NCBI GenBank assembly: GCA_044345405.1 | Contig: JBIJBE010000031.1 | Coordinates: 1 to 42,963 of the forward strand | DNA length: 42,963 bases | From: Bdellovibrionota bacterium | GTDB lineage: Bacteria > Bdellovibrionota_C > UBA2361 > OMII01 | Reading direction: 5' to 3' | Part shown: positions 20,886 to 40,869 of the stretch, piece after piece | How positions within the stretch are numbered: the first letter of the stretch is position 1 | Layout of the letters: the number at the start of each line of letters is the position of its first letter | Translations under genes and position numbers: made by a program | The notes under the pieces: model-generated | The model's database searches: none | Told to the model about the DNA's origin: nothing | The model's input: only the letters and a program-made list of their open reading frames with translations

Positions 20886-21035
20886 GGAGGGCGACGAGCC
20901 TGCCTCGACGTAGCGTAGCGAAGGTGGGTCCTGGTCGCCGCAACATTTCCTCGTAGCGGACGGTATTCGCCTCACGCAACACGGCGGTCAGGATCCCACT
21001 TCGCTCCGCTACGAGGGACAAGCTGACCGCCCTCC
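20886..21035. repeat. REPIN-like unit; both REPs carry a hairpin insert
   Basis: Left REP 20886-20939 (insert 20899-20928), right REP 20983-21035 (insert 20994-21022); 20921-21035 matches 25700-25814. Confidence 0.9.
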
Positions 21036-21076
21036 GATGTCACGGGTCGCAAGCCGAGTAACGACCACGGCCGGTA

Positions 21077-24000
21077 TCACCTCCCTCCCTCCGTCCGCAC
21101 AACCCCCTGCGGCCGCACCAACGAGAACCCCTTCGGCAACTTAAACAGCTCAGTGGTCCGACCACCTTTTGAAAGAAGTCGACGGGACACCATACGGGTA
21201 GCTCGGTCTGCCCAGAAGATACCAGAGACCTGTTCATTCGTTTCAGTGGTGAAGGTTCCGTTGCCGATCGTAGCGCCTCGCTCGACGAAGAACCGAGGGA
21301 AGGCGAAGCTTCCCGCCATCGTGGTGATCTTTACCTGCCTGCCTCGTCGCTCTGTTCCACCAATGACGGCAACGAGTGGTACGGTGGAATTCGGACGATC
21401 AACAACAAAACCGCGGACGAAGGAGTTATACTTACTTTCGAACCTCCGTTGACCGCTCGTGTCGTATCCGACGACTCGGGTTCGGTTATCAACTCCCCGT
21501 GTTGTGAAGAGAAGCTCATCTACGCCATCGCCATCGGTGTCGCCGCAGCCGATCACGTTGCAGCTTCCTAATCCACTCAAGACTACCTCTCGAGTTGAGG
21601 AATCACCGAGGCTCTTAAAGTGTAGTGCCCGCGTCTCGCTCTTAAAGACGGCGAAGGAGGCGCCTTTGTTGGCGGCGAAATTACAGCCGGACACGAGGGT
21701 ATCACCGGCGGCTCCAACTGAGACGTTCACGGCTTTGCCGGTCGTTGAGAGCTCTACATTCCATTCGAGATTTCCGTCTCGTACTCCAACAGCGGCGACG
21801 TCACTCACGCCGTCGTCATCGTAATCGGCGATTGCGGGATACCGTCCGGCAATAGTACGCGTTGTCCATGCTCCACTTGATGAGCGCCGCGTCTTAACCC
21901 GAACCTCATTCCGCGCTCTTCGCCACGTCGTGATCGCGGTATCCCCCACCCCGGTGAAGTCAAGAGGGGCGGCTGCAACGATGACGACCTTTACCGGGGC
22001 GGATGGCGCGCTTCTATCAACCTCAGACGCGACGTTCACGGTTGAAATCTCCCGGTACCCCGGAGCGAGCGCGGGAAGGGTAAATGTCCACGCTCCCGCC
22101 CCACTTCCGCTCGATGATGTAATCGGAACCTTTCCAACAACGATACCGTCTACATGGACCTCAACGGTGTATCCGACCGCTCCAGTACCAGAGAGAACAA
22201 CGTTGCGTCCACGCACGACGATGTTGGGTCCCTGAGGTTGGTCGCCAGGGCGCCCGAAGTCGATGTCAGGAGGCGGCGGCGCGGCGAGGGTTGGAGTGTA
22301 GGTGGGAGTAACGGTCGGAGTAGAGGTAGGGGTCGGTGTCACCGTAGGGGTAGGCGTAGGCGTTGGAGAAGTTCCGCTCAACGAACCGACGACCTCTCCA
22401 GCCGATCCCCCACCACGATTCCATGTCGCCAGCATCTGGCTGTGACTTCCTGTGCTGTTCACTACAGATATACTGCGGGGAGAACCGGTTGAACTTACCG
22501 ATACCGGAGAGGACCACACTGCATACGGTGAAGTTGACTCGGTATACTTAACCGTACCACCCTCGATAAACCACGAAACCAACCCCGAGGTAGTCCCGTA
22601 GATGCCAGTAGCTTGAGAGGATACAGTCCCGCTCACGATAGAGGTCGCGGCGCTCCAGGTTGCGGAGCTACTGGTGTAGCTCTTCATCATGACATCGTTG
22701 TTCGTATCAATGTAGGCAAGGTGTGCCGTGCCGTCCTCTCCAGCAATCAGAGATGCCTCAGACCCCGCTACCTGGTTTGCCACCGGGATACGCCGGATGG
22801 TTGAGAGACCGCCCGACCCACCGACATAGAGCGTTTTGCTTGAGTCCGTCGTTAATGCATACACCTGCTTTGTGACCCCTGTCCCAAGGGAGCCCCATGC
22901 ACTACCGTTCCACACGGCTACATAGCTCGCCGCGCTACCACCTGCGCTGGTGAAAGATCCCCCCACGTAGAGATTATCATCGCTATCGATCGTCAAAGCA
23001 TTTGCGGGTGAGCTTAGCCCTGTGCCAAGCGCAGACCACGATGTACCGTTCCACTTCGCGACCCTGTTAGCTGGACTTCCCCCGGCGGTTGTAAAGTCAC
23101 CCACAACGTAGAGGTTTCCGGTCGAATCGAATGCGAGATCATTTCCGCTAAAGTTGAGCCCCGCCCCAAGACCAGACCACAACGTCCCGTTCCACTTAGC
23201 GATGCGCGAAGCGGATACCCCACCTGCCGTGCTAAACGATCCTGTAGCATAGAGGTTTCCATCTCGATCGAGAGCAAGCGAATTCGGATTAGCGTTAAGG
23301 CCGGCCCCCAGAGCAGACCAGGTGCTCCCATCCCACTTGGCTATTCTGCTCACTGGCACTTCACCTGCGGAAGAAAAATTCCCTCCTGCGTAAAGGTGCC
23401 CATCTGCGTCGAGAATCATAGCTGTCACGTTACCGCCGAGCCCGTCTCCAAGCGCAGACCACGACGTTCCGTTCCACTTCGCTATATTCCACACCAATGT
23501 TCCGCCCGCGCTCGAAAACCAACCTCCCGCATAGACGTTGCCATGTGCATCAGCGGCCAAGGCACTCACAGAGTCCAAAAGGCCGACCCCCGTTCCTAAA
23601 GCAGACCATGATGTGCCGTTCCACTTGGCGATGTGATTAACTGCGACTCCTCCCGCTGTTGTAAAACTCCCACCTGCGTAGAGGTTGCCGCTTGCGTCAG
23701 AAGTGACGGCATACACTGTACCGTTCAATCCCGCATCGAGCCCAGACCATGAGGTACCGTCCCACGAGGCTATGTAGTTGGTAGTGATTGCACCGATCGT
23801 ACCGAATTGCCCCCCTGCATACAGCTTACCGCTGGTGGTAACAGCAAGAGCGCTTATGACGCTATTCGTCGACGTGCTCAGGCCCGTCCACGTGCTTCCA
23901 TCCCATTTAGCGATGGAGCGAGCTGCTACATCGCCGGCAGTGTAAAACATTCCACCCGCATAAAGGTTACCATCTGCGTCAACCGCCAAGGCTTCTACCC

Positions 24001-25549
24001 CGTTCACGTCCATCCCGACACCAAGAGCTGACCACGCACTACCATCCCATTTCGCGATGAGGTTTGCCGCCGTTCCTCCGGCGGTAGTAAAATATCCCCC
24101 CGCATACAGATTCCCATCACGGTCAAGGGTGAGGGCATATACTGCCTCATCCATACCCGTGCCCACCGCTGACCACGCAGCGCCATCCCACTTCGCTATC
24201 CGGTCAATCGATGTTCCTCCCGCGGTCGTAAACCGCCCACCAGCGTAGAGATTTCCACTGGCATCAACGATCATAGCCAATACGGAGTTATTCATCCCCG
24301 TCCCAAGCGCGGACCACGAGGATCCGTTCCACGTGGCGATTCGGTTAACCGTGACCCCGCCTGCAGTTGTAAAAGCACCTGCCACATAGACGTTACCACC
24401 TGGCCCAAAGGCGATCTCATGTACACTGCTATTCACCCCCGTCCCCAGGGCTGACCACGAAGTTCCATCCCACTTCGCTATACGGTTGGCGGGAACGCCG
24501 CCTGCCGTCGTAAAACTACCACCCGCATAGACGTTACCGCTCGCATCAACGGCTAGCTCCCACACGCTATCATTCACTCCACTGCCCAGTGCGGACCACG
24601 ACGTACCGTTCCACTTAGCGATACGATTAACCGTTACTCCAGCAGCGGCTGTAAAAGTACCACCGACATAGAGATTGCCACTAGCGTCAAGAGCCAGAGC
24701 ATAAACATGGGAACTGAGACCAGCCGACGCAAAGCTTAGCGTTGCATACTCCCCGCCCGCTCCCACGACATTCCAAGCTGTGCCATCGAATTCATACGTC
24801 ACAACATTCGTGCCACTGTCGCCAGACACGGCGGCGAGCATTTTCTCCCCAGAGATTGGCACCATGGCAACGCTTGAAACCGAAGGAGAGGGTTTACCCA
24901 TCGAGGTTGCGGCGTTAAATGAAAGTGCTTGATCGCCTCTGTTCGTAGTGCGGCGTGCCGTAAGGTGGTACCGATCTCCTACATTCCCAAGATCCTTAAA
25001 CGCCGCGGTCCACACCTTTCCGCTCGTGTCGCACACAACGTGCGGACGGATATAGGCATCACTCGCGGACGTCCCATCCAGTACCGTTTCTTCACTATCA
25101 AAAGATACGCTCGTCCCCGACAAAGTTCCCCTCCGCATCACAACGTCGTAGGTGTTCGACTCTGAAACGAGGAAGAAGTACGAGGTGCTACCAAGCACCT
25201 TGTGCGTCACTGAGAAGTTCGGCGTGTTATACGCAAGAGTCCCGCGTGAGGTCCACGTTGCGCCATCAGGTGACGACGCATACTCGATCGCGGTGCCGTT
25301 GTACCAAAATACCCAGTGCGTGTTTGACGAGGAGTCAAAGAAGCTTTTGCGAGCGCCCTCGGTGGTGGAGTTTGTTGAGTTTGATTGCCCTACTATGGAG
25401 GTCTGCGCATGCGAGACATGCGGAGACAACAAAGCGATTATGAACACCAGCGTGAGAGGAAGCGACACCAAGAGCGCACAGGGGCTCTTGCGGGTGCGAG
25501 GCACACCGTTTATTGCACAACCGTTTGTCGACACCGCTTCGTGATCCAT
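21077..25549 (-). CDS. Large secreted beta-propeller repeat protein, paralog A
   Basis: Signal peptide ending SHA-QTS; 14 blade repeats (VxALxxDxxGNLYAGGxFTTAGGxxxNRIAKWxGxxWSALGxG); Pro/Thr linker; Ig-like segment; C-terminal DYDDDG/DTDGDG domain. Confidence 0.9.
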   Translation of the reverse strand: MDHEAVSTNGCAINGVPRTRKSPCALLVSLPLTLVFIIALLSPHVSHAQTSIVGQSNSTNSTTEGARKSFFDSSSNTHWVFWYNGTAIEYASSPDGATWTSRGTLAYNTPNFSVTHKVLGSTSYFFLVSESNTYDVVMRRGTLSGTSVSFDSEETVLDGTSASDAYIRPHVVCDTSGKVWTAAFKDLGNVGDRYHLTARRTTNRGDQALSFNAATSMGKPSPSVSSVAMVPISGEKMLAAVSGDSGTNVVTYEFDGTAWNVVGAGGEYATLSFASAGLSSHVYALALDASGNLYVGGTFTAAAGVTVNRIAKWNGTSWSALGSGVNDSVWELAVDASGNVYAGGSFTTAGGVPANRIAKWDGTSWSALGTGVNSSVHEIAFGPGGNVYVAGAFTTAGGVTVNRIATWNGSSWSALGTGMNNSVLAMIVDASGNLYAGGRFTTAGGTSIDRIAKWDGAAWSAVGTGMDEAVYALTLDRDGNLYAGGYFTTAGGTAANLIAKWDGSAWSALGVGMDVNGVEALAVDADGNLYAGGMFYTAGDVAARSIAKWDGSTWTGLSTSTNSVISALAVTTSGKLYAGGQFGTIGAITTNYIASWDGTSWSGLDAGLNGTVYAVTSDASGNLYAGGSFTTAGGVAVNHIAKWNGTSWSALGTGVGLLDSVSALAADAHGNVYAGGWFSSAGGTLVWNIAKWNGTSWSALGDGLGGNVTAMILDADGHLYAGGNFSSAGEVPVSRIAKWDGSTWSALGAGLNANPNSLALDRDGNLYATGSFSTAGGVSASRIAKWNGTLWSGLGAGLNFSGNDLAFDSTGNLYVVGDFTTAGGSPANRVAKWNGTSWSALGTGLSSPANALTIDSDDNLYVGGSFTSAGGSAASYVAVWNGSAWGSLGTGVTKQVYALTTDSSKTLYVGGSGGLSTIRRIPVANQVAGSEASLIAGEDGTAHLAYIDTNNDVMMKSYTSSSATWSAATSIVSGTVSSQATGIYGTTSGLVSWFIEGGTVKYTESTSPYAVWSSPVSVSSTGSPRSISVVNSTGSHSQMLATWNRGGGSAGEVVGSLSGTSPTPTPTPTVTPTPTSTPTVTPTYTPTLAAPPPPDIDFGRPGDQPQGPNIVVRGRNVVLSGTGAVGYTVEVHVDGIVVGKVPITSSSGSGAGAWTFTLPALAPGYREISTVNVASEVDRSAPSAPVKVVIVAAAPLDFTGVGDTAITTWRRARNEVRVKTRRSSSGAWTTRTIAGRYPAIADYDDDGVSDVAAVGVRDGNLEWNVELSTTGKAVNVSVGAAGDTLVSGCNFAANKGASFAVFKSETRALHFKSLGDSSTREVVLSGLGSCNVIGCGDTDGDGVDELLFTTRGVDNRTRVVGYDTSGQRRFESKYNSFVRGFVVDRPNSTVPLVAVIGGTERRGRQVKITTMAGSFAFPRFFVERGATIGNGTFTTETNEQVSGIFWADRATRMVSRRLLSKGGRTTELFKLPKGFSLVRPQGVVRTEGGR

Positions 25550-25665
25550 TCACAGCGGATGTCGGCATTCTTGCGAAATAGCTAAAGAGAAGCAGACACC
25601 TATTGGATAAGGGGTTATAATTGTGGATGATATTTTTTCAGGGTGCGGCCCGATTTAGCACATCG

Positions 25666-25814
25666 GGAGGGCGACCAGCTTGCACGCCGTAGCGTAGCAA
25701 AGGTGGGTCCTGGTCGCCGCAACATTTCCTCGTAGCGGACGGTATTCGCCTCACGCAACACGGCGGTCAGGATCCCACTTCGCTCCGCTACGAGGGACAA
25801 GCTGACCGCCCTCC
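25666..25814. repeat. REPIN-like unit; both REPs carry a hairpin insert
   Basis: Left REP 25666-25718 (insert 25679-25707), right REP 25762-25814 (insert 25773-25801). Confidence 0.9.
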
Positions 25815-25836
25815 CGAAACGCGGGACAGGCGACGC

Positions 25837-28800
25837 TCATCTTTCCCTCTTCGTAGTGCGGACGATCCCCTGCGGCCTCACCAACGAGAACCCCCTCGGT
25901 AACTTGAACAGCTCCGTAGTCTCGGCACCTCTCGAAAGAAGTCTACGGGACACCATGCGATTTTTGCGGTCTGCCCAGAAGATACCAGAGACCTGTTCAT
26001 TCGTTTCGGTGGTGAAGGTTCCGTTGCCGATCGTAGCTCCTCGCTCGACGAAGAACCGAGGGAAGGCGAAGCTTCCCGCCATCGTGGTGATCTTTACCTG
26101 CCTGCCCCGTCGCTCTGTTCCACCAATGACGGCAACGAGTGGTACGGTGGAATTCGGACGATCAACCACAAAGCCGCGAACAAATGAATTGTACTTACTC
26201 TCAAATCTTCGCTGCCCGGTCGTATCGTATCCGACAACTCGGGTTCGGTTATCAGATCCCCGTGTTGTGAAGAGAAGCTCATCTACGCCATCGCCATCGG
26301 TGTCGCCGCAGCCGATCACGTTGCAACTTCCTAACTTATGTAGCGTAACGGCGCGAGCCGTTGCGTCCCCGGCACTCTGATACTGCAACGTCCGCTGCCC
26401 ACTCGAAAACACCGCAAGAGATGCGCCTTTACCCGAAACGAAATTGCACCCAGAGAGGATCGTATCACCGGCTTTTCCAAGGGTGGTTGTCATCGCTTTT
26501 TCCGCGCTGGACCGGTGTAGCGTCCACTCTAAAGCGCCTTCATGCACCCTCACGGCTCCGAGATCGCTCACGCCATCATCATCGTAGTCGGCAACGACAG
26601 GATGCCTACCGCGAATAGTTTTCGTCGTCCACTCGGCGCTTGAGGCGCGACGGATCTTAAATAGTATCGAGTCGCTCGCCTTTCGCCACGCCGTAATTGC
26701 AGTGTCTCCCACTCCCTCAAAGTCGAGCGGAGCAGCAGCAACAACAACGACTTTGACAGGAGCCGATGGCGCACTTCGATTCACGTCGGAAGCGACATAG
26801 GTGGTAGCGATCTCCCGCTCTCCTGGCGCAAGAGATGGAAGGGTGTAGCTCCACGTTCCGGTTCCATCACCATTCGAGGCGATGATAGGCACCGTCGCGA
26901 CAACGATACCATCAACCTGAATCTCGACCTTGTAGCCAATCAGTCCCGTACCCGAGACGACGACGTCACGTCCGCGCACCACGACCGTTGGACCAGCACG
27001 CACATCGCCAGGGTTGCCGAAGTCTATGTCGGGCGGTGGTGGAGATGGGATGGTAGGAGTAGCGGTTGGGGTTGACGTTGAAGTGAATGTCGGAGTTACC
27101 GTAGGTGTCACAGTCGGAGTTGCGGTCGGAGATAATCCGCTCAAAGACGCGACTACCTCCCCTGCCGAACCGCCAACCGCGTTCCATATCGCAAGGGTTA
27201 GGCTGTGGGATCCCGAACTCGCGTGCACCGAGATACCTGTCGGCGTGCCGACTGCGCTCACGGTTGTTGGAGCTGACCACACCGAGTACGGCGCGCTCGC
27301 TTCCGTGTACTTAACGGCGCCCCCTTCAATAAACCAGGAGACCAACGCAGAGTTCGTTCCATAGATGCCAGCGGCTTGAGACGAGACCGGCCCAGCAACG
27401 ACGGATGTAGCAGCGCTCCACGTTCCAGGTGAGCCGGTATAGCTCTTCATCTTCACACTATTGTTTGTATCGATGTAGAACAGATGCGCAGCACCACCAT
27501 CGCCTGGAACGAGAGATGCGGTGGATCCATATTGTTGATTACCCACCGCACTTTGTTGGATGAAAGATAGAGCAGAAGACCCACCCACATAGAGGTTTCC
27601 GTGAAGGTCAAACGTAAGGGCGTTAAGCCCATATCCGGCCGAACCATACGGGGCCCACGAACTCCCATCCCACTTCGCAACACCAGAAGCCGCGATACCT
27701 CCAGCAGTTGTAAAACTCCCTCCTGCGTACAGCGCACCGGCGGCATCGAGCGTCAGCGCCTGCACACCACTATCCATCCCGGTCGACATCGTTGTCCAGG
27801 ACGCGCCATCCCATTTCGCGATACGGTTGGCAGTTATGCCACCGGCTGTGGTGAAGCTGCCTCCAGCGTAGAGATTTCCGCTGCCATCTACCTTGAGCGC
27901 ATACACAGGGCCGTTCATACCTGTCGAGAGTGTCGACCACGAACTACCGTTCCACTTGGCTACTCGGGTAGCCCCCGCGCCACCTGCCGTGGTGAAAGTA
28001 CCCCCGGCATAAAGATTTCCACTTCCGTCAAAAGCCACGGCACACACAGTGTCATTAACCCCACTCCCAAGAGCGGACCACGCACTGCCGTCCCACTTAG
28101 CTATGCGGTTAGCAGCTCCACTACCCGCAGAAGTGAAGCCGCCACCAGCATAGACATTTCCGCTCCCATCAGAGGTCAAGGTAAAGATACCATTATTCAC
28201 ACCAGCCCCAAGGGCTGACCACGTGGTCCCATTCCATTTAGCGATCCGATTAGCCGCAACCCCGCCGGCTGTAGTGAAATCCCCTCCAGCAAAGAGGTTA
28301 CCACTGGAGTCAAGGTGCAAGGCGTACACATTTCCATTCATCCCCGTCGACAGGGGGGACCAAGAGGTTCCGTTCCATCGAGCGATGTAGGTAGCGGGGC
28401 CTCCACCGATAGTTGTAAAATTTCCTCCCGCATAGAGGTTACCGCTCGTATCCCCAGCCACGGCAAACACTTCGCCATCCAGTCCTGTTCCAAATGAGCG
28501 CCACGAGTTCCCGTTCCATGAAGCAACGCCGTTACATTGTTTAGTGCCCGCGCTTACCATTGCGCCGCCGGCAAAGATAGTTCCACTTGCGTCAGTGGTC
28601 AGGGCTAAAACAGCACCATTGACCTCCTCTGCAAGGGCAGACCAGGAAGTGCCGTTCCATTTGGCCATGCCGTTCGCCGACGCACCACCTGCTGTGGTAA
28701 AATAACCCGCTGCATAGAGGTTGCCGCTCGCGTCAACAGCTAGGGCATGCACAATACTATTCACCCCACTCCCAAGCGGAGCCCAAGACGCGCCGTTCCA

Positions 28801-30306: not shown

Positions 30307-30465
30307 GGGCCTATATCATTACCGATTCATCCACCTCGTAGATCGGTAGTTCAACCTAAGATCTTTAGGAATTCAGGGATGTAGGGGATAAGAACCAAAG
30401 ATTACTCAAGATAATTGTGGGCATCCATGCGGTAGACGAAGTTCATTTGCGTTGCGCGATTTTTC

Positions 30466-30518
30466 GGCGGTCAGGATCCCACTTCGCTCCGCTACGAGGG
30501 ACAAGCTGACCGCCCTCC
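30466..30518 (-). repeat. Solo REP with hairpin insert
   Basis: Identical to 20983-21035 and 25762-25814; insert at 30477-30505. Confidence 0.9.
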
Positions 30519-30528
30519 CAGGTCACGG

Positions 30529-30563
30529 GTCGCCCTCGCGAAACGCGCAATAGGCGAGGCGAC
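30529..30563. other. Stem-loop just downstream of the paralog C stop
   Basis: GTCGCCCTCGC...GCGAGGCGAC inverted repeat with one bulge; no U-tract. Confidence 0.4.
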
Positions 30564-30570
30564 ACTTCGC

Positions 30571-33500
30571 TCATCTTTTGCTCGTCGTCGTCCGCACGAT
30601 CCCCTGCGGCCTCACCAACGAGAACCCCCTCGGCAACTTGAACAGCTCCGTAGTCTCGGCACCTCTCGAAAGAAGTCTACGAGACACCATACGGGTAGCT
30701 AGGTTTGCCCAGAAGATTCCGGAGACCTGCTGATTGTTTTCGGTAGTAAACGTTCCGTTACCGATCGTTGCGCCTCGCTCGACGAAGAACCTCGGGAACG
30801 CGAAGCTTCCCGCCATCGTGGTGATCTTTACCTGCCTGCCTCGTCGCTCTGTTCCACCAATCACCGCAACGAGTGGTACGGTGGAATTCGGACGATCAAC
30901 CACAAAGCCGCGAACAAATGAATTGTACTTACTCTCAAACCTTCGCTGACCGGTCGTATCGTATCCGACGACTCGGGTTCGGTTATCAGCTCCCCGTGTT
31001 GTGAAGAGAAGTTCATCAACGCCATCGCCATCCGTGTCGCCGCATCCGATCACGTTGCAGCTTCCTAATCCACTCAAGACAACCTCCTGAGTTGCGGAAT
31101 CACCGAGGCTCCTAAAGTGCAGTGCCCGCGTCTCACTCTTGAAGACGGCGAAGGAGGCGCCTTTGTTGGCGGCGAAATTACAGCCGGACACGAGGGTATC
31201 ACCGGCGGCTCCAACTGAGAGGTCCAGGGCTTTGCCGGTCGTTGAGAGCTCTACATTCCATTCGAGATTTCCGTCTCGTACTCCAACAGCGGCAACGTCA
31301 CTCACGCCGTCGTCATCGTAATCCGCTATCGCGGGATACCGTCCGGCAATAGTACGCGTTGTCCATGCCCCACTTGATGAGCGCCGCGTCTTAACCCGAA
31401 CCTCATTCCGCGCTCTTCGCCACGTCGTGATCGCGGTATCCCCCACCCCGGTGAAGTCAAGAGGGGCGGCTGCAACGATGACGACCTTTACCGGGGCGGA
31501 TGGCGCGCTTCTATCAACCTCAGACGCGACGTTCACGGTTGAAATCTCCCGGTACCCCGGAGCGAGCGCCGGAAGGGTAAATGTCCACGCTCCGGTCGAT
31601 GATGTGATTGGAATCCGTCCAACCACGATACCATCCACCTGAACCTCTACGGTGTAGCCGACCGCTCCAGTACCAGAGAGAACAACGTTGCGTCCACGCA
31701 CGACGATGTTGGGGCCCTGAGGTTGGTCGCCGGGCTGTCCGAAATCGATATCGGGAGGGGGAGGCGCGGGAACCGTTGGAGTGTATGTCGGAGTGACGGT
31801 GGGCGTGACTGTCGGGGTAGAAGTCACAGTCGCGGTGGCAGTCATAGTAGGAGTCGATGTTGGCGTGGCGGTCATGGTAGGGGTCGGTGTTGGCGTCGCT
31901 GGCATCAGACTTAACGCCGAAGCTACCTCCCCTGCAGATCCTCCAACCCGATTCCACACCGCCACCATGTCGCTTGTGGTGCCAGAGGTGAGAGGCGCAG
32001 ATATATTCTTTGCAGTCGCGTCGGAACTTACAGATGTTGGAGGATACCAGGAGGTGTACGGCCAATTCGCCTCGGTGTGCTTCACCGTTCCGTCCTCGAG
32101 GAACCACGACACCATGGCGGAGCTCAGCTCGTACATTCCCGTGGCGTGAGAGGTAACGTTTCCGGTAACCACCGGCGTTGCAGCGCTCCACGTACTGGTG
32201 CTGCCTGAGTAGCTCTTCAACATCAGATCGTTATTCGTATCGATGTAGGTGAGGTGCGCGGTACCCTCGCTACCTGAAACAAGGGAGGCACTTGTACCCG
32301 CGAGCTGATTATTCACCGGCGCGGGGCGTATCACCTTAAGCCCTGAGTCACCCCCGCCGTTACCCCCAATAGCATAGAGGTTGCCGCTTGCATCGCTCGT
32401 AAGAGAGCTGAACCAGGTTGCCCCGTCAGCCACCGTTCCGAGGGCAGACCATGAGCTACCATCCCACTTTGCAAGGCCGTCAGCGGCAGTACCACCCGCC
32501 GTCGTAAAACTTCCCGTAGCGTAGAGGTTTCCACCTGCGTCAACCGTAAGAAAGGATACGCTCCCATTCATGCCGGTGGACAGGGATGACCACGACGTCC
32601 CATTCCACCGAGCGATATTGGCAGCAGCTACCCCACCGGCGGAGGTGAAGGTTCCGCCAACATAGAGGGTACCACTCGCATCAACCACCATCGGCTGCAC
32701 GCCACCATCAACCCCTCCACCAACGGTAGACCACGTTGAGCCGTTCCATTGAGCGAAACCATTAACAGTGACCCCATCAGCCGTCGTAAACCCACCCGTC
32801 GCATACAACGTGCCACCTCCGTCGACGGCGAGCCCGATTACATAATCATTCATTCCCGTTCCGAGGGGGGACCACGAGGTACCGTTCCACTTCGCTATTC
32901 TGTCAGCCGCAACACCACCCGCCTCTGTAAAATCCCCTCCCGCATAAACGTTCCCACCTGCGTCAACGGCCAGAGCAGAGACAATGCTTGTGTCTACGGT
33001 TCCTATTCCCGATCCAAGCGCAGACCAGGCTGTACCGTCCCAGCGGGCGATGTTGTTGACAGCCACCCCACCGGCAGACGAGAAAGAACCTCCAACGTAG
33101 AGGTTGCCACTCGCATCGAATGCGAGGGCATAGACGGTCCCATCAACCCCTGTTCCCAAAGCACTCCACGACGAGCCGTTCCATTTCGCTATCCCGTTAG
33201 CCCTCAATCCACCCGCGGCGCCGATGTACCCTCCGGCATACAAGTTCCCAGTTGCATCAACGAGCAGCGCTGAGACGTAGTTTATCTCCTTTACTCCAAT
33301 CGGTTGCCACTCCGTCCCGCTCCAGGTAGCGACGTTTCTAACTACAATGCCATTCAAAGTTGTTTCGAAGTTGCCCCCTACGTGAAGATTACCGGCACCG
33401 TCACAAACGAGGGCATTAACCCACAAACCTATCCCCCCCAAGAGGGACGACCACGACGTGCCGTTCCATTTCGCTATGTATTGAGCCGGGATGCCTCCGG

Positions 33501-35115
33501 CCGAAAGAAACCGGCCTCCCGCATAGAGGTTATCACTCGCGTCAACGGCCAGGGCTCTTACCTCACTGTTGACACCACTCCCCAGCGCTGACCACGACGT
33601 TCCGTTCCACTTGGCTATTCTGTTAACGGTAACTCCACCGGCAGTAGTAAAATTGCCTCCTGCATAAACGTTACCGCCTCCATCAATGGCCAGGGCAAAC
33701 ACGGTTAGGCCTGCGCCGGTGCCGAGAGATGACCACGAGGTACCGTTCCATTTCGCGATCTTGTTCCTGGTCGCACCACCTGCGGTGTTAAAGGTTCCTC
33801 CCACATAGACGTTCCCACTTCCGTCGATTGCTACGGCATTCACAGTTCCGCTCGTACCCGAACCGAGCGCCGACCACGACGATCCATCCCATTTCGCTAC
33901 CCGATTCGCACTTAGCCCGCCCGCTGTCGTGAAATCACCACCAACATACAGGTTGCCGCTCGAGTCGAATTTGAGAGCATTTACAGTTCCATTCAATCCC
34001 TCTCCAAGCGCAGACCATGACGTACCGTCCCACTTCGCTATTCTGTTTGCGGCCACTCCGCCGGCGGTAGTGAAGCCGCCCCCCGCGTAGAGATTACCGC
34101 TGGAGTCTACAGCCAGAGCGTCCACCGAGACATTTATCCCCGAGCCAAGCGTCGACCACGCGGAGCCGTTCCATTTCGCAATGTTCTGAGCTGGAATGTC
34201 ACCAGCCTTTGAGAAAAAGCCGGCTACGTAGAGGTTGCCGGCACCATCAACAGCGACCGCATCGACAAAGCCAGTTACTCCGGGAGTCGCAGAGGCGAAG
34301 GTCATGGCACTGTACTCTCCCCCCCCTCCGGCGAGGCTCCACGCTGTGCCATCGAACTCGTAGGCGACAACGTTCGTGCCACTCTCACCGGAGGCCGCCG
34401 CCAGCATCTTCTCCCCAGTAGTAGGCACCATCGCTATGGTGCTGACTGAAATAGATGGCTTTCCCATCGAGGTTGCTGCGTCAAACGAGATAGTGTGGTT
34501 TCCAGCGGCCGCGGTGCGACGGGCAGTAAGGTGGTATCGATCGCCTACGCTCGCACGATCCTTAAACGCCGCAGTCCAAACCTTTCCATTGAGATCGAGT
34601 GCAACGTGGGGACGAATGTAGGCATCGTTCACTGAGGTTCCGTCGAATACCGTGACGTCGCTCTCAAAGGCGATGCTCGTACCCGAGATCGTTCCCCGCC
34701 GCATCACGACGTCGTAGGTGTTCGCCTCTGACACCAAGAAGATGTAGGAAGTGCCGCCTATATTCCTATACGCCACCGAGAAGTTCGGACTGTTGTACGC
34801 AAGCGTGCCGCGTGAGGTCCACGTCGAACCATCGGGTGACGACGCATACTCAACTGCGGTCCCGTTGTACCAAAATACCCAGTGCGTGTTTGACGAGGAG
34901 TCAAAGAAGCTTTTGCGAGCACCCTCGGTGGTGGAATTTGTTGAGGTGGATGCTCCGACTACGGAGGTCTGCGCATACGAAGCGCACGGGAGGATCCACG
35001 CGATTGCGAACACAAGGAAAAGAGCGAGCGACACCGAGAGCGCATACGCGCTCTTGAGGGTACGGGGCACACCCTTCATGGGACGACCGTTTGTCGACAC
35101 CGCTTCGTGATCCAT
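30571..35115 (-). CDS. Large secreted beta-propeller repeat protein, paralog C
   Basis: Same architecture; shares its N-terminus (MDHEAVSTNG) and upstream DNA with A; longest Pro/Thr linker. Confidence 0.9.
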   Translation of the reverse strand: MDHEAVSTNGRPMKGVPRTLKSAYALSVSLALFLVFAIAWILPCASYAQTSVVGASTSTNSTTEGARKSFFDSSSNTHWVFWYNGTAVEYASSPDGSTWTSRGTLAYNSPNFSVAYRNIGGTSYIFLVSEANTYDVVMRRGTISGTSIAFESDVTVFDGTSVNDAYIRPHVALDLNGKVWTAAFKDRASVGDRYHLTARRTAAAGNHTISFDAATSMGKPSISVSTIAMVPTTGEKMLAAASGESGTNVVAYEFDGTAWSLAGGGGEYSAMTFASATPGVTGFVDAVAVDGAGNLYVAGFFSKAGDIPAQNIAKWNGSAWSTLGSGINVSVDALAVDSSGNLYAGGGFTTAGGVAANRIAKWDGTSWSALGEGLNGTVNALKFDSSGNLYVGGDFTTAGGLSANRVAKWDGSSWSALGSGTSGTVNAVAIDGSGNVYVGGTFNTAGGATRNKIAKWNGTSWSSLGTGAGLTVFALAIDGGGNVYAGGNFTTAGGVTVNRIAKWNGTSWSALGSGVNSEVRALAVDASDNLYAGGRFLSAGGIPAQYIAKWNGTSWSSLLGGIGLWVNALVCDGAGNLHVGGNFETTLNGIVVRNVATWSGTEWQPIGVKEINYVSALLVDATGNLYAGGYIGAAGGLRANGIAKWNGSSWSALGTGVDGTVYALAFDASGNLYVGGSFSSAGGVAVNNIARWDGTAWSALGSGIGTVDTSIVSALAVDAGGNVYAGGDFTEAGGVAADRIAKWNGTSWSPLGTGMNDYVIGLAVDGGGTLYATGGFTTADGVTVNGFAQWNGSTWSTVGGGVDGGVQPMVVDASGTLYVGGTFTSAGGVAAANIARWNGTSWSSLSTGMNGSVSFLTVDAGGNLYATGSFTTAGGTAADGLAKWDGSSWSALGTVADGATWFSSLTSDASGNLYAIGGNGGGDSGLKVIRPAPVNNQLAGTSASLVSGSEGTAHLTYIDTNNDLMLKSYSGSTSTWSAATPVVTGNVTSHATGMYELSSAMVSWFLEDGTVKHTEANWPYTSWYPPTSVSSDATAKNISAPLTSGTTSDMVAVWNRVGGSAGEVASALSLMPATPTPTPTMTATPTSTPTMTATATVTSTPTVTPTVTPTYTPTVPAPPPPDIDFGQPGDQPQGPNIVVRGRNVVLSGTGAVGYTVEVQVDGIVVGRIPITSSTGAWTFTLPALAPGYREISTVNVASEVDRSAPSAPVKVVIVAAAPLDFTGVGDTAITTWRRARNEVRVKTRRSSSGAWTTRTIAGRYPAIADYDDDGVSDVAAVGVRDGNLEWNVELSTTGKALDLSVGAAGDTLVSGCNFAANKGASFAVFKSETRALHFRSLGDSATQEVVLSGLGSCNVIGCGDTDGDGVDELLFTTRGADNRTRVVGYDTTGQRRFESKYNSFVRGFVVDRPNSTVPLVAVIGGTERRGRQVKITTMAGSFAFPRFFVERGATIGNGTFTTENNQQVSGIFWANLATRMVSRRLLSRGAETTELFKLPRGFSLVRPQGIVRTTTSKR

Positions 35116-35231
35116 TCACAACGGAGGTCGGCGTTTTTACGAAATACCTAAAGAGAAGCAGACACCTAGCGGATAAGGGGCTAGAATTGTGGAGGATATT
35201 GTTTCGGGTTACGCCTCGAATTGGCACACAG

Positions 35232-35351
35232 GGAGGGCGACCAGCTTGCACGCCGTAGCGTAGCGAAGGCGGGTCCCCGGTCGCCGAAATCTCACGGAAT
35301 GTAACCGGTCTGCACAACACGAATCACGGCGGTCGGGGACGACCGCCCTCC
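35232..35351. repeat. REPIN-like unit; left REP filled, right REP empty
   Basis: Left REP 35232-35285 (insert 35245-35273); right REP 35328-35351 on - reads GGAG-GGCGGTC-GTCCCC-GACCGCC. Confidence 0.9.
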
Positions 35352-35380
35352 CTTTAAACGAAATGAGGTCGCTACCCACC

Positions 35381-38300
35381 TCACCTCGCTCCTTCCGTCC
35401 TCACAACCCCCTGCGGTCGCAATAACGAATACCCCTTCGGCAACTTAAACAGCTCAGTACTCCTCTCCCCTCTTGCGAGACGTCTACGGGACACCATGCG
35501 ATTTTTGCGGTTCGCCCAGAAGATGCCGGACACCTGTTGATTATTATCGGTCGTAAAAGTTCCGTTGCCGATAGTCGCTCCTCGCTCCACAAAGAATCGG
35601 GGGAAGGCGAAGCTCCCTGCCATCGTCGTAATCTTTACCTGCCTGCCGCGACGTTCCGCTCCACCGATCACCGCAACGAGCGGCACCGATGAGTTCGGAC
35701 GATCCACGACGAAACCACGAACGAAGGAGTTATACTTACTTTCGAAGCGCCGCTGCCCCGTAGTGTCATATCCTACAACTCGAATTCGGTTATCCGCTCC
35801 CCGCGTTGTAAACAAGAGCTCATCAACACCATCTCCATCGGTGTCGCCGCAGCCGATAACGTTACAGCTGCCCAAGCCTCTCAAGACAACCTGTCGGGGT
35901 GTGGAATCCCCGAGACTCATAAATTTTAGCGTTCGCGTTTCACTCTTAAAGACGGCGAACGATGCTCCCTTATTGGCGGCGAGATTACAACCGGACACGA
36001 TCGCATCGCCGACAGATCCGACCGAAGCTTTTTCACGTTCGCCGGTCGTTGAGAGGATGACATTCCATTCGAGCGAACCGTCTTGGGCTCCAACGGCAGC
36101 GATGTCGCTCACGCCATCATCGTCATAATCAGAGATTGCGGGATATCGTCCGCTCATCGTTTGCGTTGTCCACGCCATGCTTGATGCGCGACGGATCTTA
36201 AAACGGATGTCCTTGCCGACTCTTCGCCATGCCGTAATTGCGGTGTCACCAACCCCCGTGAAGTCGAGAGGAGCTGGGGCAACGATGACCACCTTAACCG
36301 AGGTGGACGGTGCGCTTCGATTGGTCTCCGACGCGACGGTGACCGTTGTAATCTCTCGCTCACCGGGGGCAAGTGCGGGAAGGATAAAGGTCCAGGCGCC
36401 CGTAGCCCCACCACTTGATGACATAATCGGAACGCTTCCAACCACGATGCCGTCCACCTGAACCTCAACGGCATACCCAACCGTTCCCGTTCCCGAGACG
36501 ACAACGTTACGTCCGCGCACCACGACATTGGGGCCATTAGGCGAGTCTCCCGGTTTTCCGAAATCGACATCGGGTGGTGGAGGCGCAGGAAGTGTTGGAG
36601 TGGAGGTCGGAGTCTCTGTTGGAGTTGACGTCGGCGTCACCGTGAACGTTGGCGTGAAGGTCGGCGTCGCAGTTGGCGCAATACCACTCAACGATGCCAC
36701 CACCTCACCTGCAGATGCGCCGACCGCATTCCAACTCGCGAGAGTTTGGCTATGCGTCCCCGAACTCGCGTGCACCGAGATACCTGTCGGTGTGCCGACT
36801 GCGCTCACGGTTGTTGGAGCGGACCACACGGAGTACGGTGCGCTTGCTTCGGTGTACTTCACCGTACCGCCCGCTATGAACCACGATACCAACGCAGAGT
36901 TGGTTCCGTAGATGCCAGCAGCTTGAGACGTAACAGGCCCCGTGGCAACCAAGGTCGAAGCGCTCCACGTTCCAGGAGAGCCTGAGTAGGTCTTCATCCT
37001 TACCGACTTGCTAGTGAGGTCGATGTAGAGGAGGTGCGCAGTGCCACTGTCTCCCACCACAAGAGATGCTATCGTTCCGTGTTCTTGGTTGCTTACGGCT
37101 ATTTGCTTTATCAGAGATAGTCCGACTGGATTGCCCGCATAAAGATCGCCGTTTGCATCAAGCGAGAGGGCATCCACACCCCAGGAACTCCCAACACCAG
37201 ACCATGCGCTACCGTCCCACCTAGCTAAGTTGTACGTCGAAATTCCGCCTATGTTACTGAAGGCTCCCCCGGCATACAGGGCTCCACTTGAATCAATCGC
37301 AAGCGCACTTACGCTTCCATCAGTCCCGGTTCCCAGAGCAGACCACGAACTACCATTCCACTTCGCTATTCTGTTAACGGTGACACCACTCGCTGTTGTG
37401 AAACTTCCTCCCGCATAGAGGCTGCCGCTGGCATCTAGTTTTAAGGCATACACGGGGCCGTCCATACCGGTCGAGAGTGTCGACCACGAAGCACCGTTCC
37501 ACTTAGCTATTCGACTCGCCGCCGCACCGCCCGCTGTTGTAAAACCGCCACCAGTATACAGCGTGCCACTAGCATCAATAATCACAGCGGATACAAAGTC
37601 ATTGACCCCACTCCCGAGCGCAGACCATCCACTGCCGTTCCACGTAGCGATCCGGTTAGCCGCTCCACCCCCCGCAGTGGTGAAGGAACCACCAGCATAG
37701 ACGTTTCCGCTGCCATCACAGCCCAAGGCCAATACAGCACTATTCATGCCCGTTCCAAGCGCAGACCACGACGTGCCATTCCACTTAGCGACTCGATTAA
37801 CCGTAATCCCGCCAGCGGTCGTGAATTCTCCTCCTGCGTAGAGATTGCCACTTGCGTCCAAGGCCAAGGCTGTAACAACCCCGTTCATGCCCGTCGACAG
37901 CGTCGACCAAGACACGCCGTTCCATCGTGCGATATAATTCGCCACCCCACCGCCTGCCGTCGTGAAGCTGCCTCCCACATAGAGATTTCCAGTTGCGTCA
38001 GCGGTAGCAGCGTACACGGCGCCGTTAAACCCAGTCCCGAGAGAAGACCACGACGAACCGTTCCACGATGCCACGCTGTAGGCAAATATATCGCCAGCGG
38101 ACCAGAAATATCCTCCCGCAAAGATACGTCCGCTTGCGTCCGCAGTCACGGCCTCCACTGATCCATCCACCTGTTCCACCAGGGCAGACCACGACGTGCC
38201 GTTCCATTTTGCCATATAAGATGCCGCAACTCCGCCCGCACTCGTAAACCAACCACCCGCATAGAGGTTGCCACTCGCATCAAAAGCCAGGGCCTTCACC

Positions 38301-39856
38301 ATATTATTCAGGCCACTCCCCAGCGCTGACCACGACGTGCCGTTCCACTTGGCTGTATATCCTGCGCCGACACCGCCGCCTCCTGCATAGAGGTTCCCAC
38401 TTCCGTCGAACGTCAACGCATAAACGGTACTAGTGGTCCCTGACCCGAGGGCGGACCACGCCGTACCGTTCCATTTCGCTATCCTGTTAGCGGTGACACC
38501 ACCTGCTGCCGTAAAGCTTCCTCCCGCATAGAGATTGCCACTGGCGTCAAAGGTGAGAGCTCGGACTGAGCCACCCATCCCGATCCCCAGCGCTGACCAC
38601 GAAGCGCCGTCCCACTTAGCTACTCGGTTTACGGTCACGCCCCCTGCCGTCGTAAAGCCACCACCAGCATACAGGTTTCCGCTGGCATCAAACTTCAGCG
38701 CGAATACCGTGCCACTGACGCCCGAGGCGAGCGGTGACCAAGCTGTACCGTCCCATTTCGCTATCCTGTTAGCAGCTACACCACCAGCAGTCGTGAAGGA
38801 GCCACCCGCATAGAGGTTTCCACTTGCATCAACGGCGAGAGCGTACACCTGGTTGTTCACCCCCGCGCCGAGGGATGACCACGACGTGCCGTTCCACTTT
38901 GCTACATTGTTGGCCGAAGCTCCGCCTGCGAATTCAAAATAGCCGCCGACATACAGGTTACCACTTCCGTCAACAGCGACCGCGATCACGCTACCGTCCA
39001 CGCCCGTCAATCCCCAGTTCGCATTCCCAAACGCGAGAGCGCCATACTCTCCCCCAGAGCCTATAAAGCGCCACGTAGTCCCATCGAACTCATAGGTGAC
39101 CACATTTGGACCACTATCAGCGGAAACAGCCGCAAGCATCTTATCGCCAGAGGTTGGCACTATAGAAACATTCGAAACTGTCACTGAGGGCTTTCCCATC
39201 GATGTCGCAGCGCTGAATGAAATGGCTTGAGAGCCGTTGCTCATGGTGCGACGCGCTGTGAGGTGATAGCGGTCGCCAACGTTTCCAAGATCCTTAAACG
39301 CCGCGGTCCACACCTTTCCATTCAGATCGAGTGCAACGTGCGGACGAATGTAGGCATCGTTCGCTGAGGTTCCGTCGAATACCGTGACGTCGCTCTCAAA
39401 GGTGATGTTCGTACCCGAGATCGTTCCCCGCCGCATCACGACGTCGTAGGTGTTCGCCTCTGACACCAAGAAGATGTAGGAAGTGCCGCCTATATTCCTA
39501 TACGCCACCGAGAAGTTCGGAGTGTTGTAGGCAAGCGTGCCGCGTGAGGTCCACGTTGAACCATCGGGTGATGATGCATACTCAACAGCGGTGCCGTTGT
39601 ACCAGAATACCCAGTGGGTGTTTGACGTAGTGTCGATGAAGCTCTTGCGAGCACCCTCGGTGGTGGAACTTGTTGAGGTTGAGGAACCAACCACTGAGGT
39701 TTGAGCCTCCGCCATGGAAGCAAGAAAAGAGAGCACGAGGACTAGAATAGCGACTACGGTCGATACACGAGCAGCTAAGGGACGGATATCCCGGTCAAAG
39801 AGCACAGGTACAAAGCGCCCGATCGTTCTCACAAACGAGCTCGTGTGGTGATCCAT
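35381..39856 (-). CDS. Large secreted beta-propeller repeat protein, paralog D
   Basis: Same architecture; signal peptide ending AEA-QTS; repeat 5 carries a short loop deletion. Confidence 0.9.
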   Translation of the reverse strand: MDHHTSSFVRTIGRFVPVLFDRDIRPLAARVSTVVAILVLVLSFLASMAEAQTSVVGSSTSTSSTTEGARKSFIDTTSNTHWVFWYNGTAVEYASSPDGSTWTSRGTLAYNTPNFSVAYRNIGGTSYIFLVSEANTYDVVMRRGTISGTNITFESDVTVFDGTSANDAYIRPHVALDLNGKVWTAAFKDLGNVGDRYHLTARRTMSNGSQAISFSAATSMGKPSVTVSNVSIVPTSGDKMLAAVSADSGPNVVTYEFDGTTWRFIGSGGEYGALAFGNANWGLTGVDGSVIAVAVDGSGNLYVGGYFEFAGGASANNVAKWNGTSWSSLGAGVNNQVYALAVDASGNLYAGGSFTTAGGVAANRIAKWDGTAWSPLASGVSGTVFALKFDASGNLYAGGGFTTAGGVTVNRVAKWDGASWSALGIGMGGSVRALTFDASGNLYAGGSFTAAGGVTANRIAKWNGTAWSALGSGTTSTVYALTFDGSGNLYAGGGGVGAGYTAKWNGTSWSALGSGLNNMVKALAFDASGNLYAGGWFTSAGGVAASYMAKWNGTSWSALVEQVDGSVEAVTADASGRIFAGGYFWSAGDIFAYSVASWNGSSWSSLGTGFNGAVYAATADATGNLYVGGSFTTAGGGVANYIARWNGVSWSTLSTGMNGVVTALALDASGNLYAGGEFTTAGGITVNRVAKWNGTSWSALGTGMNSAVLALGCDGSGNVYAGGSFTTAGGGAANRIATWNGSGWSALGSGVNDFVSAVIIDASGTLYTGGGFTTAGGAAASRIAKWNGASWSTLSTGMDGPVYALKLDASGSLYAGGSFTTASGVTVNRIAKWNGSSWSALGTGTDGSVSALAIDSSGALYAGGAFSNIGGISTYNLARWDGSAWSGVGSSWGVDALSLDANGDLYAGNPVGLSLIKQIAVSNQEHGTIASLVVGDSGTAHLLYIDLTSKSVRMKTYSGSPGTWSASTLVATGPVTSQAAGIYGTNSALVSWFIAGGTVKYTEASAPYSVWSAPTTVSAVGTPTGISVHASSGTHSQTLASWNAVGASAGEVVASLSGIAPTATPTFTPTFTVTPTSTPTETPTSTPTLPAPPPPDVDFGKPGDSPNGPNVVVRGRNVVVSGTGTVGYAVEVQVDGIVVGSVPIMSSSGGATGAWTFILPALAPGEREITTVTVASETNRSAPSTSVKVVIVAPAPLDFTGVGDTAITAWRRVGKDIRFKIRRASSMAWTTQTMSGRYPAISDYDDDGVSDIAAVGAQDGSLEWNVILSTTGEREKASVGSVGDAIVSGCNLAANKGASFAVFKSETRTLKFMSLGDSTPRQVVLRGLGSCNVIGCGDTDGDGVDELLFTTRGADNRIRVVGYDTTGQRRFESKYNSFVRGFVVDRPNSSVPLVAVIGGAERRGRQVKITTMAGSFAFPRFFVERGATIGNGTFTTDNNQQVSGIFWANRKNRMVSRRRLARGERSTELFKLPKGYSLLRPQGVVRTEGAR

Positions 39857-40026
39857 TCACCAAGAAGATCGACTAACTACCCCACTACCTTGAGGGAAAT
39901 GGGGGATACCGCAGGCGTGGGCGAAGGATTATTCACCACAGATATCCCTAACCTGCTGATTGCAGGTTTCCCGCGCTCCTTCGCAATGGCTCCCCGTAGC
40001 GCGGGGAGCTCTGGAGCTCTCATGAT

Positions 40027-40530
40027 TCAAGGGATGGTGACTTTAAGCGAGAGCTCCTCCAAAAAGCAGTTCTCACTGCTACTCGGAACTCGTCTAACCT
40101 CGCACCTCAAACCACCCTCAATGAGAGCGGCGGCGACCCGCTCAGTCGCCTGAATGCGAACGGTGTGGTCAAACGGCAACATCGAGAGATCGAGCGGGCC
40201 GGAGATAGAACCATCAGCGCAGATCTGCGCGAATTTCCATCCCACGGATTCATGGCGAAATATCGAATTGAACGTCACCGACGATCTCCCCTCACTCGTC
40301 GCGGCATGAAGGCGACCGATCATATTCTGGAAGAGCGTTCCCGACCTCTCGGCTACCGCCTGCTCGAGGCGTTCAGGGGTGTGTCGGGCGAGCTGTTGCT
40401 CGTACCACTCACGACGCGCCTCCTCTTTGAGATTCTGGAAGTGATCGCGTTGGGCTGCGAGCGCTGGCAACGTGCTCTCGTCGAGCTTAAGAGGCGCGGA
40501 GGATTGAGCGGCTGAGGGGTGAGCGTTCAT
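40027..40530 (-). CDS. Hypothetical protein
   Basis: ATG at 40530 preceded by GGAGA; co-oriented upstream of the paralog array; no recognised motif. Confidence 0.6.
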   Translation of the reverse strand: MNAHPSAAQSSAPLKLDESTLPALAAQRDHFQNLKEEARREWYEQQLARHTPERLEQAVAERSGTLFQNMIGRLHAATSEGRSSVTFNSIFRHESVGWKFAQICADGSISGPLDLSMLPFDHTVRIQATERVAAALIEGGLRCEVRRVPSSSENCFLEELSLKVTIP

Positions 40531-40650
40531 GGTGTCTCCAGGTGTAAGTATGGGTAAGGGTGCCACTGGGAGCGACGTTAATCAAAGGGTTTGCGGGGTG
40601 GTGGGACAGGTGCGGACAGCAGCGAACTCAAGAGCACTGAGCTAATAATC

Positions 40651-40830
40651 GGAGGGCGACCATTCCTCCCCCGTCGCTAAAGCTATGGGGGACAGGTCGG
40701 TCGCCGAAAGGTTGCGTGTCACAAACGACCTTCACCTCACGCAACGCGGCTTGTGCCCCATAGCTTTAGCGTCGGGGCACGGTCAGGATCCCACTTCGCT
40801 TCGCTACGAGGGACAAGCTGACCGCCCTCC
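40651..40830. repeat. REPIN-like unit with three hairpin inserts
   Basis: Left REP 40651-40705 (insert 40667-40696, minus); right REP 40748-40830 (inserts 40750-40779 plus and 40789-40817 minus). Confidence 0.9.
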
Positions 40831-40869
40831 GAGGTCACGGGTCTACGAAATGGGGTACATGCCACAAAC

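Follow-up and report, generated by a model that had tools for sequence, protein, structure and literature searches.

A CYTG-tagged hairpin module nested in REP palindromes of a Bdellovibrionota genome and adjoining small GIY-YIG nuclease genes

What kind of element comes to lie inside the palindromes of another repeat family, and which enzyme could have moved it there? The question is raised by a 42,963-nucleotide (nt) stretch of DNA from a Bdellovibrionota bacterium (GenBank assembly GCA_044345405.1, contig JBIJBE010000031.1, positions 1–42,963 of the forward strand), which was analysed at its full length and is called the window below. Here a 29–30-nt hairpin with the 5′ tag CYTG is inserted nine times into repetitive extragenic palindromes (REPs). 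A first-pass annotation regarded this hairpin as a second, minimal non-autonomous element that targets another repeat. The present analysis covers the parent genome (G000; 3.59 Mb in 85 contigs, 55% G+C), its relatives and other phyla. The CYTG hairpin is a discrete, oriented module with exact boundaries and several insertion sites; its sequence covaries across phyla, and it is physically linked to nuclease genes. The hairpin is not confined to this genome, nor is it restricted to REPs. By analogy with the Ssn nucleases and their SRM/NTS hairpin repeats, we lean towards reading it as the repeat that a small single-domain GIY-YIG nuclease recognises, and as a discrete mobile module of 29–30 nt.

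The unit comprises a 4-base tag (CTTG or CCTG) and 25–26 bases that can pair into a 6-bp C-rich/G-rich stem around the core GWAGC-N3-4-GCGWA. Direct reading of the window confirms nine such units at the positions that the first-pass annotation had given. The pattern CYTG-N5-7-RTAGC-N3-4-GC matches the window nine times, only at these positions, compared with a mean of 0.44 and a maximum of 3 matches in 200 dinucleotide-preserving shuffles of the window. A genome-wide nhmmer profile likewise recovers all nine, with E-values from 4.5e-5 to 9. Every window copy lies inside a GGAG-tagged REP of the form GGAG-GGCGRYC-loop-GRYCGCC. These host REPs are mostly arranged as inverted pairs (REPINs), in the spacers of four tandem paralogous genes and at both ends of the array. 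Seven of the nine copies sit in the tag-strand loop, mostly between AG and TCCT.

Copy 1 (20899–20928, + strand; nhmmer C65 20900, E = 0.28) lies in the GGAG-REP at 20886–20939 (+), which reads GGAG, arm GGCGACG, AG–insert–TCCT, arm GGTCGCC, and has one mismatched arm. Its partner REP at 20983–21035 (−; arm GGCGGTC, CTCC on the + strand) holds copy 2 (20994–21022, −). Copies 3 (25679–25707, +) and 4 (25773–25801, −) lie in the GGAG-REPs at 25666–25718 (+) and 25762–25814 (−), and copy 5 (30477–30505, −) in a single GGAG-REP at 30466–30518 (−); for all three, the sequence, the nhmmer profile, the pattern and an alignment of REPIN copies (A1) agree. Copy 6 (35245–35273, +), found by both nhmmer and the pattern, departs from the usual junction in having TCCCC as the right loop remainder of its GGAG-REP (35232–35285, +). 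The partner of that REP, at 35328–35351 (−), is empty and reads GGCGGTC-GGGGAC-GACCGCC-CTCC in alignment A1. Copy 7 (40667–40696, −), the one window copy in the loop on the other strand, sits in the GGAG-REP at 40651–40705 (+) as ATTCC–insert–TC. The REP at 40748–40830 (−) carries two inserts: copy 9 (40789–40817, −) lies in its loop, and copy 8 (40750–40779, +) splits its stem arm as GG–insert–CGGTC. Two further empty REPs, at 123–142 and 186–209, form an unfilled REPIN (123–209; loops ATTCCT and AGGAAT) that serves as the reference for the unfilled state; the empty-REP pattern matches twice there, against 0.03 expected. At the junction of loop and 3′ arm, the GGAG-REPs read CCTG followed by the arm (ATT-CCTG-GTCGCC; window 40662–40705 and all empty REPs). 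The host REP thus carries a copy of the guest's tag adjoining a stem.

Comparison with empty sites defines the boundaries of the insert. G020, the closest relative sampled, has a REPIN of the spacer family common to the window REPINs, with an unfilled right REP (GGCGGTC-AGGAAT-GACCGCC). Against this G020 REPIN, the window REPINs show a single 29-nt block of difference in alignment A1; for copy 2 it appears as a 29-nt gap against the empty REP. The stem-arm copy 8 stands out as a clean 30-nt block that none of the five other REPIN copies in the alignment contains. Its filled state must be derived, because the arm is intact in the 274 genomic REPs with a 6-nt loop. Precise fills are also seen elsewhere. 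Opposite-strand copies read AG–insert–GAAT or AGG–insert–AAT, each a precise fill of AGGAAT, and a second REP family, empty in G020 (loops TCCT and AGGA), carries its insert in G000 precisely at the TC–CT junction. Whichever of the three loop contexts is considered, two loop bases precede the insert. Alignment with empty paralogues and the relative's REPIN reveals no target duplication at the insert boundaries. These clean 29–30-nt indels, found at several REP positions, bear out the proposal of a discrete tagged module separate from the REP. The related claim that removing the insert restores a REP needs one amendment. Tag-strand junctions read AG–insert–TCCT in 32 of 34 copies and AT–insert–TCCT in the other two (C26 74378 and C33 22585), and excision at the former yields AG+TCCT in place of the usual ATTCCT.

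Several insertion events are needed to explain these copies, because the sites differ in strand and position, one subfamily occurs in both polarities, and one spacer family is differently filled. The inner subfamily TCCCCC-GAAGC-CTTG is found in REP loops of both polarities and also free. Within a single REPIN spacer family, the left REP carries an opposite-strand insert in G020 (where the filled form of copy 7 recurs) and at window 40651–40705, and a tag-strand insert at 20886 and 25666. Descent of all filled copies from a single ancestral event, which the first-pass annotation had considered, is therefore contradicted both by the subfamily at sites of opposite polarity and by the spacer family that differs between G000 and G020. 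Outside REPs, all three relatives inspected lack the free copy at C83 59899 in the orthologous spacer, and all five inspected lack the copy at C21 51365, in spacers too diverged for base-exact empty sites. Copying of the host repeats has probably also contributed. The REPINs at 20870–21060 and 25650–25835 are almost identical, and the adjoining paralogous genes are just 77–83% identical. Much of the REP-borne copy number is likely hitch-hiking on REPIN amplification. Since such amplification can multiply copies, enrichment by copy count overstates targeting.

A census of the whole genome places the nine window copies in context. The nhmmer profile, built from 54 genome-wide seeds, gave 87 matches at E ≤ 10, of which 86 were usable. 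Together with a 24-nt short type, CCTG-TCCCGAGC-N4-YCGAGGGA, the genome holds ∼85 long-type and 17 short-type copies, about two thirds of them in GGAG-REPs. Sixteen of the 17 short-type copies occupy the opposite-strand REP-loop position (control, 0). There are 598 places starting with GGAGGGCG, of which 274 are REPs with a 6-nt loop and ∼75 have loops of 26–37 nt. The 86 long-type matches were sorted into contexts by hand, as an automatic host-stem classifier mislabelled REPs whose stem extends by AG/CT. Thirty-four lie in a REP loop on the tag strand, 16 in a REP loop on the opposite strand, three within a REP stem arm and one beside a REP in an odd arrangement. Five occupy the second REP family (GGAG-GGCCYGTS...), three other palindromes, six the tandem arrays behind two small GIY-YIG genes, and 17 are free or within other repeats; one is probably false. 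Three of the 86 listed copies are on contig C52 and may be double-counted with the window end.

The hairpin occupies at least three different sites inside GGAG-REPs (a stem arm and two positions in the loop, which lie on opposite strands), and ∼31 of the ∼85 long-type copies lie outside these REPs altogether. The first-pass statement that every copy lies inside a GGAG-REP holds for the window and fails genome-wide. Similarly, the hairpin does land in another repeat, at several sites, as the idea of REP targeting requires; the targeting is not dedicated, since a second REP family, other palindromes, spacers and gene arrays are also occupied. This second family (GGAG-GGCCYGTS-TCCT-...) forms REPINs of its own (C48 19619, C48 61930, C61 44308, C76 20907, C60 57536; L020:2740–2840). 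The spacer orthologous to window 40638–40870 holds an empty second-family REPIN in G020 and a GGCGRYC-type REPIN in G000. A generic scan for CYTG plus any hairpin was dropped, as most of its 593 matches were spurious. A possible tRNA at C62 27200–27700, where the flank resembles a T-arm, was rejected after aragorn found none. No Rfam family exists for the hairpin itself: an Rfam search of the window at gathering thresholds gave no matches, and an E-value search of hairpin loci returned weak chance matches and, otherwise, only the tRNA, 5S, tmRNA and RNase P genes nearby.

The gene that adjoins the hairpin encodes a small GIY-YIG protein. PF01541 identifies three places in G000: UvrC and two small open reading frames (ORFs; E = 3.7e-14 and 2.2e-12). 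The latter, at C36:31721–31960 and C56:345–106, each encode 79 residues counted from Met and sit outside the window. In both, the hairpin lies 0–5 nt behind the stop codon with its CYTG strand antisense to the gene; CACACTTCGCCC comes next, and then a tandem array whose unit of 84 or 106 nt itself includes the hairpin. The 84-nt units lie at C56:1–105 and C82:43–240 and the 106-nt units at C36:31967–32102; two of these arrays reach contig ends. The nuclease has homologues in 22 of the 41 genomes. Among the six closest (MKYVYIL... type), four share the 3′ hairpin arrangement (L171, L172, L174 and L175), one has the trailing motif only (L177) and one is cut by a contig end (L173). A second clade of homologues (MHYVYILNS...) has other hairpins upstream. 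At three alphaproteobacterial loci, a homologous ORF follows the hairpin at a distance of 5–22 nt; the two share a strand, and GCGAAGG precedes the hairpin. Physical linkage in G000, in its relatives and in Alphaproteobacteria makes the small GIY-YIG protein, one of the enzyme types that the first-pass annotation had named for inspection, the candidate enzyme; genes of the Y1 transposase type do not abut the hairpin.

The hairpin also extends well beyond G000. A strict pattern finds it in 25 of the 41 genomes of the order, with 43 matches in G000 and 0–1 in a reversed-pattern control. A stricter pattern, for which we estimate less than one chance match in the whole collection, finds at least 122 stretches in many phyla, including Alphaproteobacteria, Verrucomicrobiota, Acidobacteriota, Patescibacteria, Bacteroidota, Planctomycetota, Elusimicrobiota, Omnitrophota and others among the matches listed. 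In these 126 listed cross-phylum matches, the one stem pair left unconstrained by the pattern is Watson-Crick in 100, and CTTG or CCTG immediately precedes the stem in 55. Loop sequences are CTTG in 75, TTTA in 49, CTTA in two and TTTG in none. The first and last loop bases therefore co-vary. Both common loops presumably close to two-residue mini-loops in DNA.

Host contexts are equally varied in these genomes. In G032, from another family of the order, all eight copies inspected lie in the loop of a quite different palindrome inside one larger repeat (L026–L033: palindrome GGACTGGCT...AGCCAGTCC, then a second hairpin). In G039, two copies lie in another palindrome and others follow a tRNA gene. 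One such locus (L043; G039:C12:76450–76743) consists of a tRNA gene followed by tandem units of spacer, hairpin and a copy of the tRNA 3′ end, an array that resembles serial integration beside a tRNA. Elsewhere, copies are nested in local palindromes (L058, L064, L066, L067, L104 and L106), and some cross-phylum copies follow tRNA or tmRNA genes. Two class A bacterial RNase P RNA genes carry the hairpin within the first 100 model positions (L089:42–146 and L119:39–146; a Sphingorhabdus and a Geobacter metagenome-assembled genome), on opposite strands relative to the RNA.

The closest known system is formed by the Ssn nucleases and their SRM/NTS hairpin repeats. According to the paper that describes them (Chenal et al. 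2025, Nat Commun 16:2388, PMC11893778), Ssn proteins consist of a single GIY-YIG domain (cd10448; 94 residues in Neisseria meningitidis). Their target is one strand of a tagged hairpin repeat (NTS, or SRM in the general case), which they bind only as single-stranded DNA, and they cleave a few bases 5′ of the repeat. Both this cleavage and an effect on transformation are demonstrated in that source. An SRM lies near 71% of ssn homologue genes and on both sides of 42%. The authors liken NTS-ssnA-NTS to an insertion sequence; mobility is put forward as a hypothesis only and none is demonstrated (PMC11893778). The system described here shares a single-domain GIY-YIG protein of ∼80–95 residues with Ssn. 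It shares with SRM/NTS a short, oriented, dispersed hairpin that has a 4-nt 5′ tag, abuts the nuclease gene and is spread widely across phylogeny. Tyr5, Tyr17 and Glu63 of the G000 protein have nearly the residue numbers of Y6, Y17 and E64, at which substitutions abolish SsnA cleavage, in a comparison of positions and not of aligned sequences. The differences are also clear. The tag is CYTG here and HGTC in SRM, and the core here is GWAGC...GCGWA. The hairpin flanks the gene on one side, whereas 42% of ssn homologues have an SRM on both (PMC11893778). Solo hairpins inside other repeats, as seen here, are not described in the available portions of that paper. Nor was the hairpin core found printed in the searchable literature. 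The system probably works like Ssn/SRM and is not a member of it by the published repeat definition.

On the Ssn-like reading, the nuclease would bind the CYTG strand as single-stranded DNA and nick next to it. The nick or freed end would then allow host repair or replication to copy the hairpin into other DNA that loops expose as single strands. Single-strand exposure of loops would account for the preference for palindromes. Landing would take place without target duplication in hairpin-forming DNA, typically two bases into the loop of the host palindrome, and solo hairpins would be gene-less derivatives. Once within a REP, a hairpin may be multiplied further by REP/REPIN copying or by conversion among REPIN copies.

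A number of observations weigh against this reading. No DNA-joining activity is known for GIY-YIG enzymes, so the pasting step lacks an enzyme; we regard this as the weakest point. The link between nuclease and hairpin is also loose. A GIY-YIG gene starts within the 60-nt flanks of only three of the 126 cross-phylum matches listed. With the G000 protein as query, no GIY-YIG match was found in G011 (15 hairpins, 84% complete) or G032 (13 hairpins, 95% complete), and G030 has four GIY-YIG matches and no hairpin by the strict pattern. No locus among those of G000, its relatives and the Alphaproteobacteria has the hairpin on both sides of the gene. The best solved relative of the G000 nuclease is the UPF0213 protein BH0048 (1zg2; E = 1.2e-5), and an NCBIfam search with the G000 nuclease returned no family. 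The published SRM sequence (HGTCWY...RNCYNB) overlaps none of the 87 catalogued hairpins, with 30 matches in G000 and 16 in a reversed-genome control, and hairpin words were absent from all of the supplement files of PMC11893778 that were searched (12 of 14). Isolated copies fold weakly in the DNA energy model (z from −0.19 to −3.58, with z ≤ −2 in five of 14 folds), where the two strands are alike. It is therefore covariation, and not stability, that argues for a hairpin. Finally, the AG junction of most tag-strand copies is one base change from ATTCCT and not a precise fill, and its being shared suggests spread from few founders. The first-pass interpretation survives in so far as a tagged, minimal and non-autonomous hairpin does land in another repeat; its REP-specific scope and the enzyme class it favoured do not survive.

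The strongest alternative holds that no dedicated enzyme is involved: template switching or gene conversion at hairpin DNA would have produced the inserts, co-amplification with REPINs would explain their abundance in REPs, and the nuclease gene would be a passenger or landing place. The same imperfect AG...TCCT junction in 32 of 34 tag-strand copies is as expected from few founders, and the near identity of the REPINs at 20870–21060 and 25650–25835 between less similar flanking paralogues also fits. So does G032, where the eight inspected copies share one larger repeat and no GIY-YIG match was found. Near-identical 26-nt cores with the same 5′ tag in distant phyla, however, call for a sequence-specific reader, and this alternative must also accommodate insertions with exact boundaries at several unrelated sites and adjacency to the same nuclease family that recurs in two distant lineages. 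We consider it unlikely.

A second alternative retains an enzyme of another class. The hairpin would be a second class of REP, a tag plus hairpin cut and pasted as single-stranded DNA by a REP-associated tyrosine transposase (RAYT) or another HUH/Y1 enzyme that prefers REP loops. A tag joined to an imperfect palindrome is indeed REP-like architecture, and landing in loops without target duplication is what single-strand transposition would produce. Seven PF01797 (Y1_Tnp) ORFs are present in G000, RAYT-like and 324–336 residues long (C18:70847–71821, C43:42658–43668, C52:37915–36929, C26:119351–120325, C67:31267–32241, C69:10334–9360 and C22:3672–2698). All seven are flanked by repeats of their own: short direct repeats form an array upstream, and an inverted copy lies downstream. 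None has a CYTG hairpin within 220 nt on either side, and none is flanked by a GGAG-REP. No link to the hairpin was thus found for the RAYT/HUH enzymes that the first-pass annotation had listed among the candidates, and the only genes found abutting it are those for GIY-YIG proteins. IS200/IS605-type elements use two distinct ends, and a single 26-nt hairpin is too small for these. The tag, moreover, is neither GTAG nor CGTC. Altogether, we regard a RAYT as a distinctly doubtful mobiliser. Like REPs and REPINs, the CYTG hairpin is a tagged, imperfect, extragenic and multi-copy palindrome (Bertels & Rainey 2011, PMC3116915; Di Nocera et al. 2013, PMC3733652). It differs from the REP/RAYT system in that no RAYT is flanked by it, in its tag, and in being a guest in REPs and not itself a REP. 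The presence of some REPs inside other small palindromes, noted in passing for Thermomicrobium roseum by Di Nocera et al. (PMC3733652), would sit well with a RAYT-based explanation.

Other mobile elements were compared. Insertion sequences such as IS1397 and others reportedly use REP palindromes as landing sites; these are full-length elements with their own transposases and target duplications, whereas the guest here is 29–30 nt long and leaves no duplication. The small dispersed repeats (SDR) of cyanobacteria are said to be mobile units of 21–27 nt, often nested in other repeats. Miniature elements derived from IS200/IS605 (PATE-like) have two different subterminal hairpins and a TnpA in the genome. 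An origin of this kind was rejected, as there is one hairpin in 29–30 nt and as the genome has only long RAYT-like Y1 ORFs and no short TnpA.

The least probable alternative, in which selection maintains the hairpin for its action as RNA or as a terminator (a transcript end, stabiliser or protein-binding site) and in which it is not mobile DNA, can point to the Bacteroidota-type loci with a tRNA gene, hairpin and T-run (L060, L068, L070 and L076), to the hairpin after the stop codon of GIY-YIG genes, to its replacement of part of the RNase P RNA 5′ region in L089 and L119, and to purine-purine oppositions confined to one strand, and is made improbable by copies of both polarities inside one REPIN spacer, the opposite strands in the two RNase P genes, the missing T-run of most G000 copies, the lack of Rfam family matches in the window and at hairpin loci, a loop covariation (CTTG/TTTA) that fits two-residue DNA mini-loops, and clean indels at many sites that RNA function leaves unexplained. 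An intrinsic terminator was rejected on its own account: the G000 copies sit mostly in REP loops, in either polarity and with no T-run behind them, and T-runs occur at only a few places (C5 1338, C45 89392 and the Bacteroidota-type tRNA loci).

The sequence has partial support from public assemblies. The runs listed for the DNA of the window comprise 24 lake-water DNA runs and no RNA run. Contigs of four lake-water runs cover the genes at 99–100% and break at REPs. One contig of run X1 spans 40651–40706, including the insert of copy 7, with no indels listed. Loose contig ends resemble empty REPs, with flanks too short for assignment to a locus, and since contigs break at REPs these assemblies gave no information on filled/empty polymorphism. 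Within G000, C52:767–1726 repeats window 40567–41526 at 98% identity, with three hairpin copies; either this segment is genuinely duplicated or the bin (contamination 3.5%) contains a second strain. The four tandem paralogues that alternate with the REPs occupy window 21077–39856 (−), have 1489–1514 codons and encode beta-propeller repeats (Rax2, Reg_prop, DUF5122 and SBBP matches). Their 77–83% identity refers to the 3′ ends, and every spacer between them has a REP or REPIN.

What is new here is evidence for mobility and for nesting in REPs, added to an Ssn/SRM-like architecture. The Ssn paper left open how the repeats multiply, and the natural filled and empty sites described here make mobility directly testable. 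They also reveal two repeat systems that interact, one landing in the loops of the other and multiplying with it, which bears on mosaics like those of REPs and bacterial interspersed mosaic elements (BIMEs). The retention of a 26-nt core and its tag from Alphaproteobacteria to Patescibacteria, and its tolerance in RNase P RNA genes, represent unusual conservation for non-coding repeat DNA. We offer a bolder version of the Ssn-like reading only tentatively: the CYTG hairpin may be genuinely mobile, among the smallest such elements known, moved via an Ssn-like GIY-YIG nuclease, and able to enter, two bases into the loop and with no target duplication, the hairpins of both REP families, other palindromes and the 5′ hairpin region of RNase P RNA genes across phyla. 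If this were true, Ssn/SRM systems would become a new class of single-strand mobile elements with a non-HUH enzyme.

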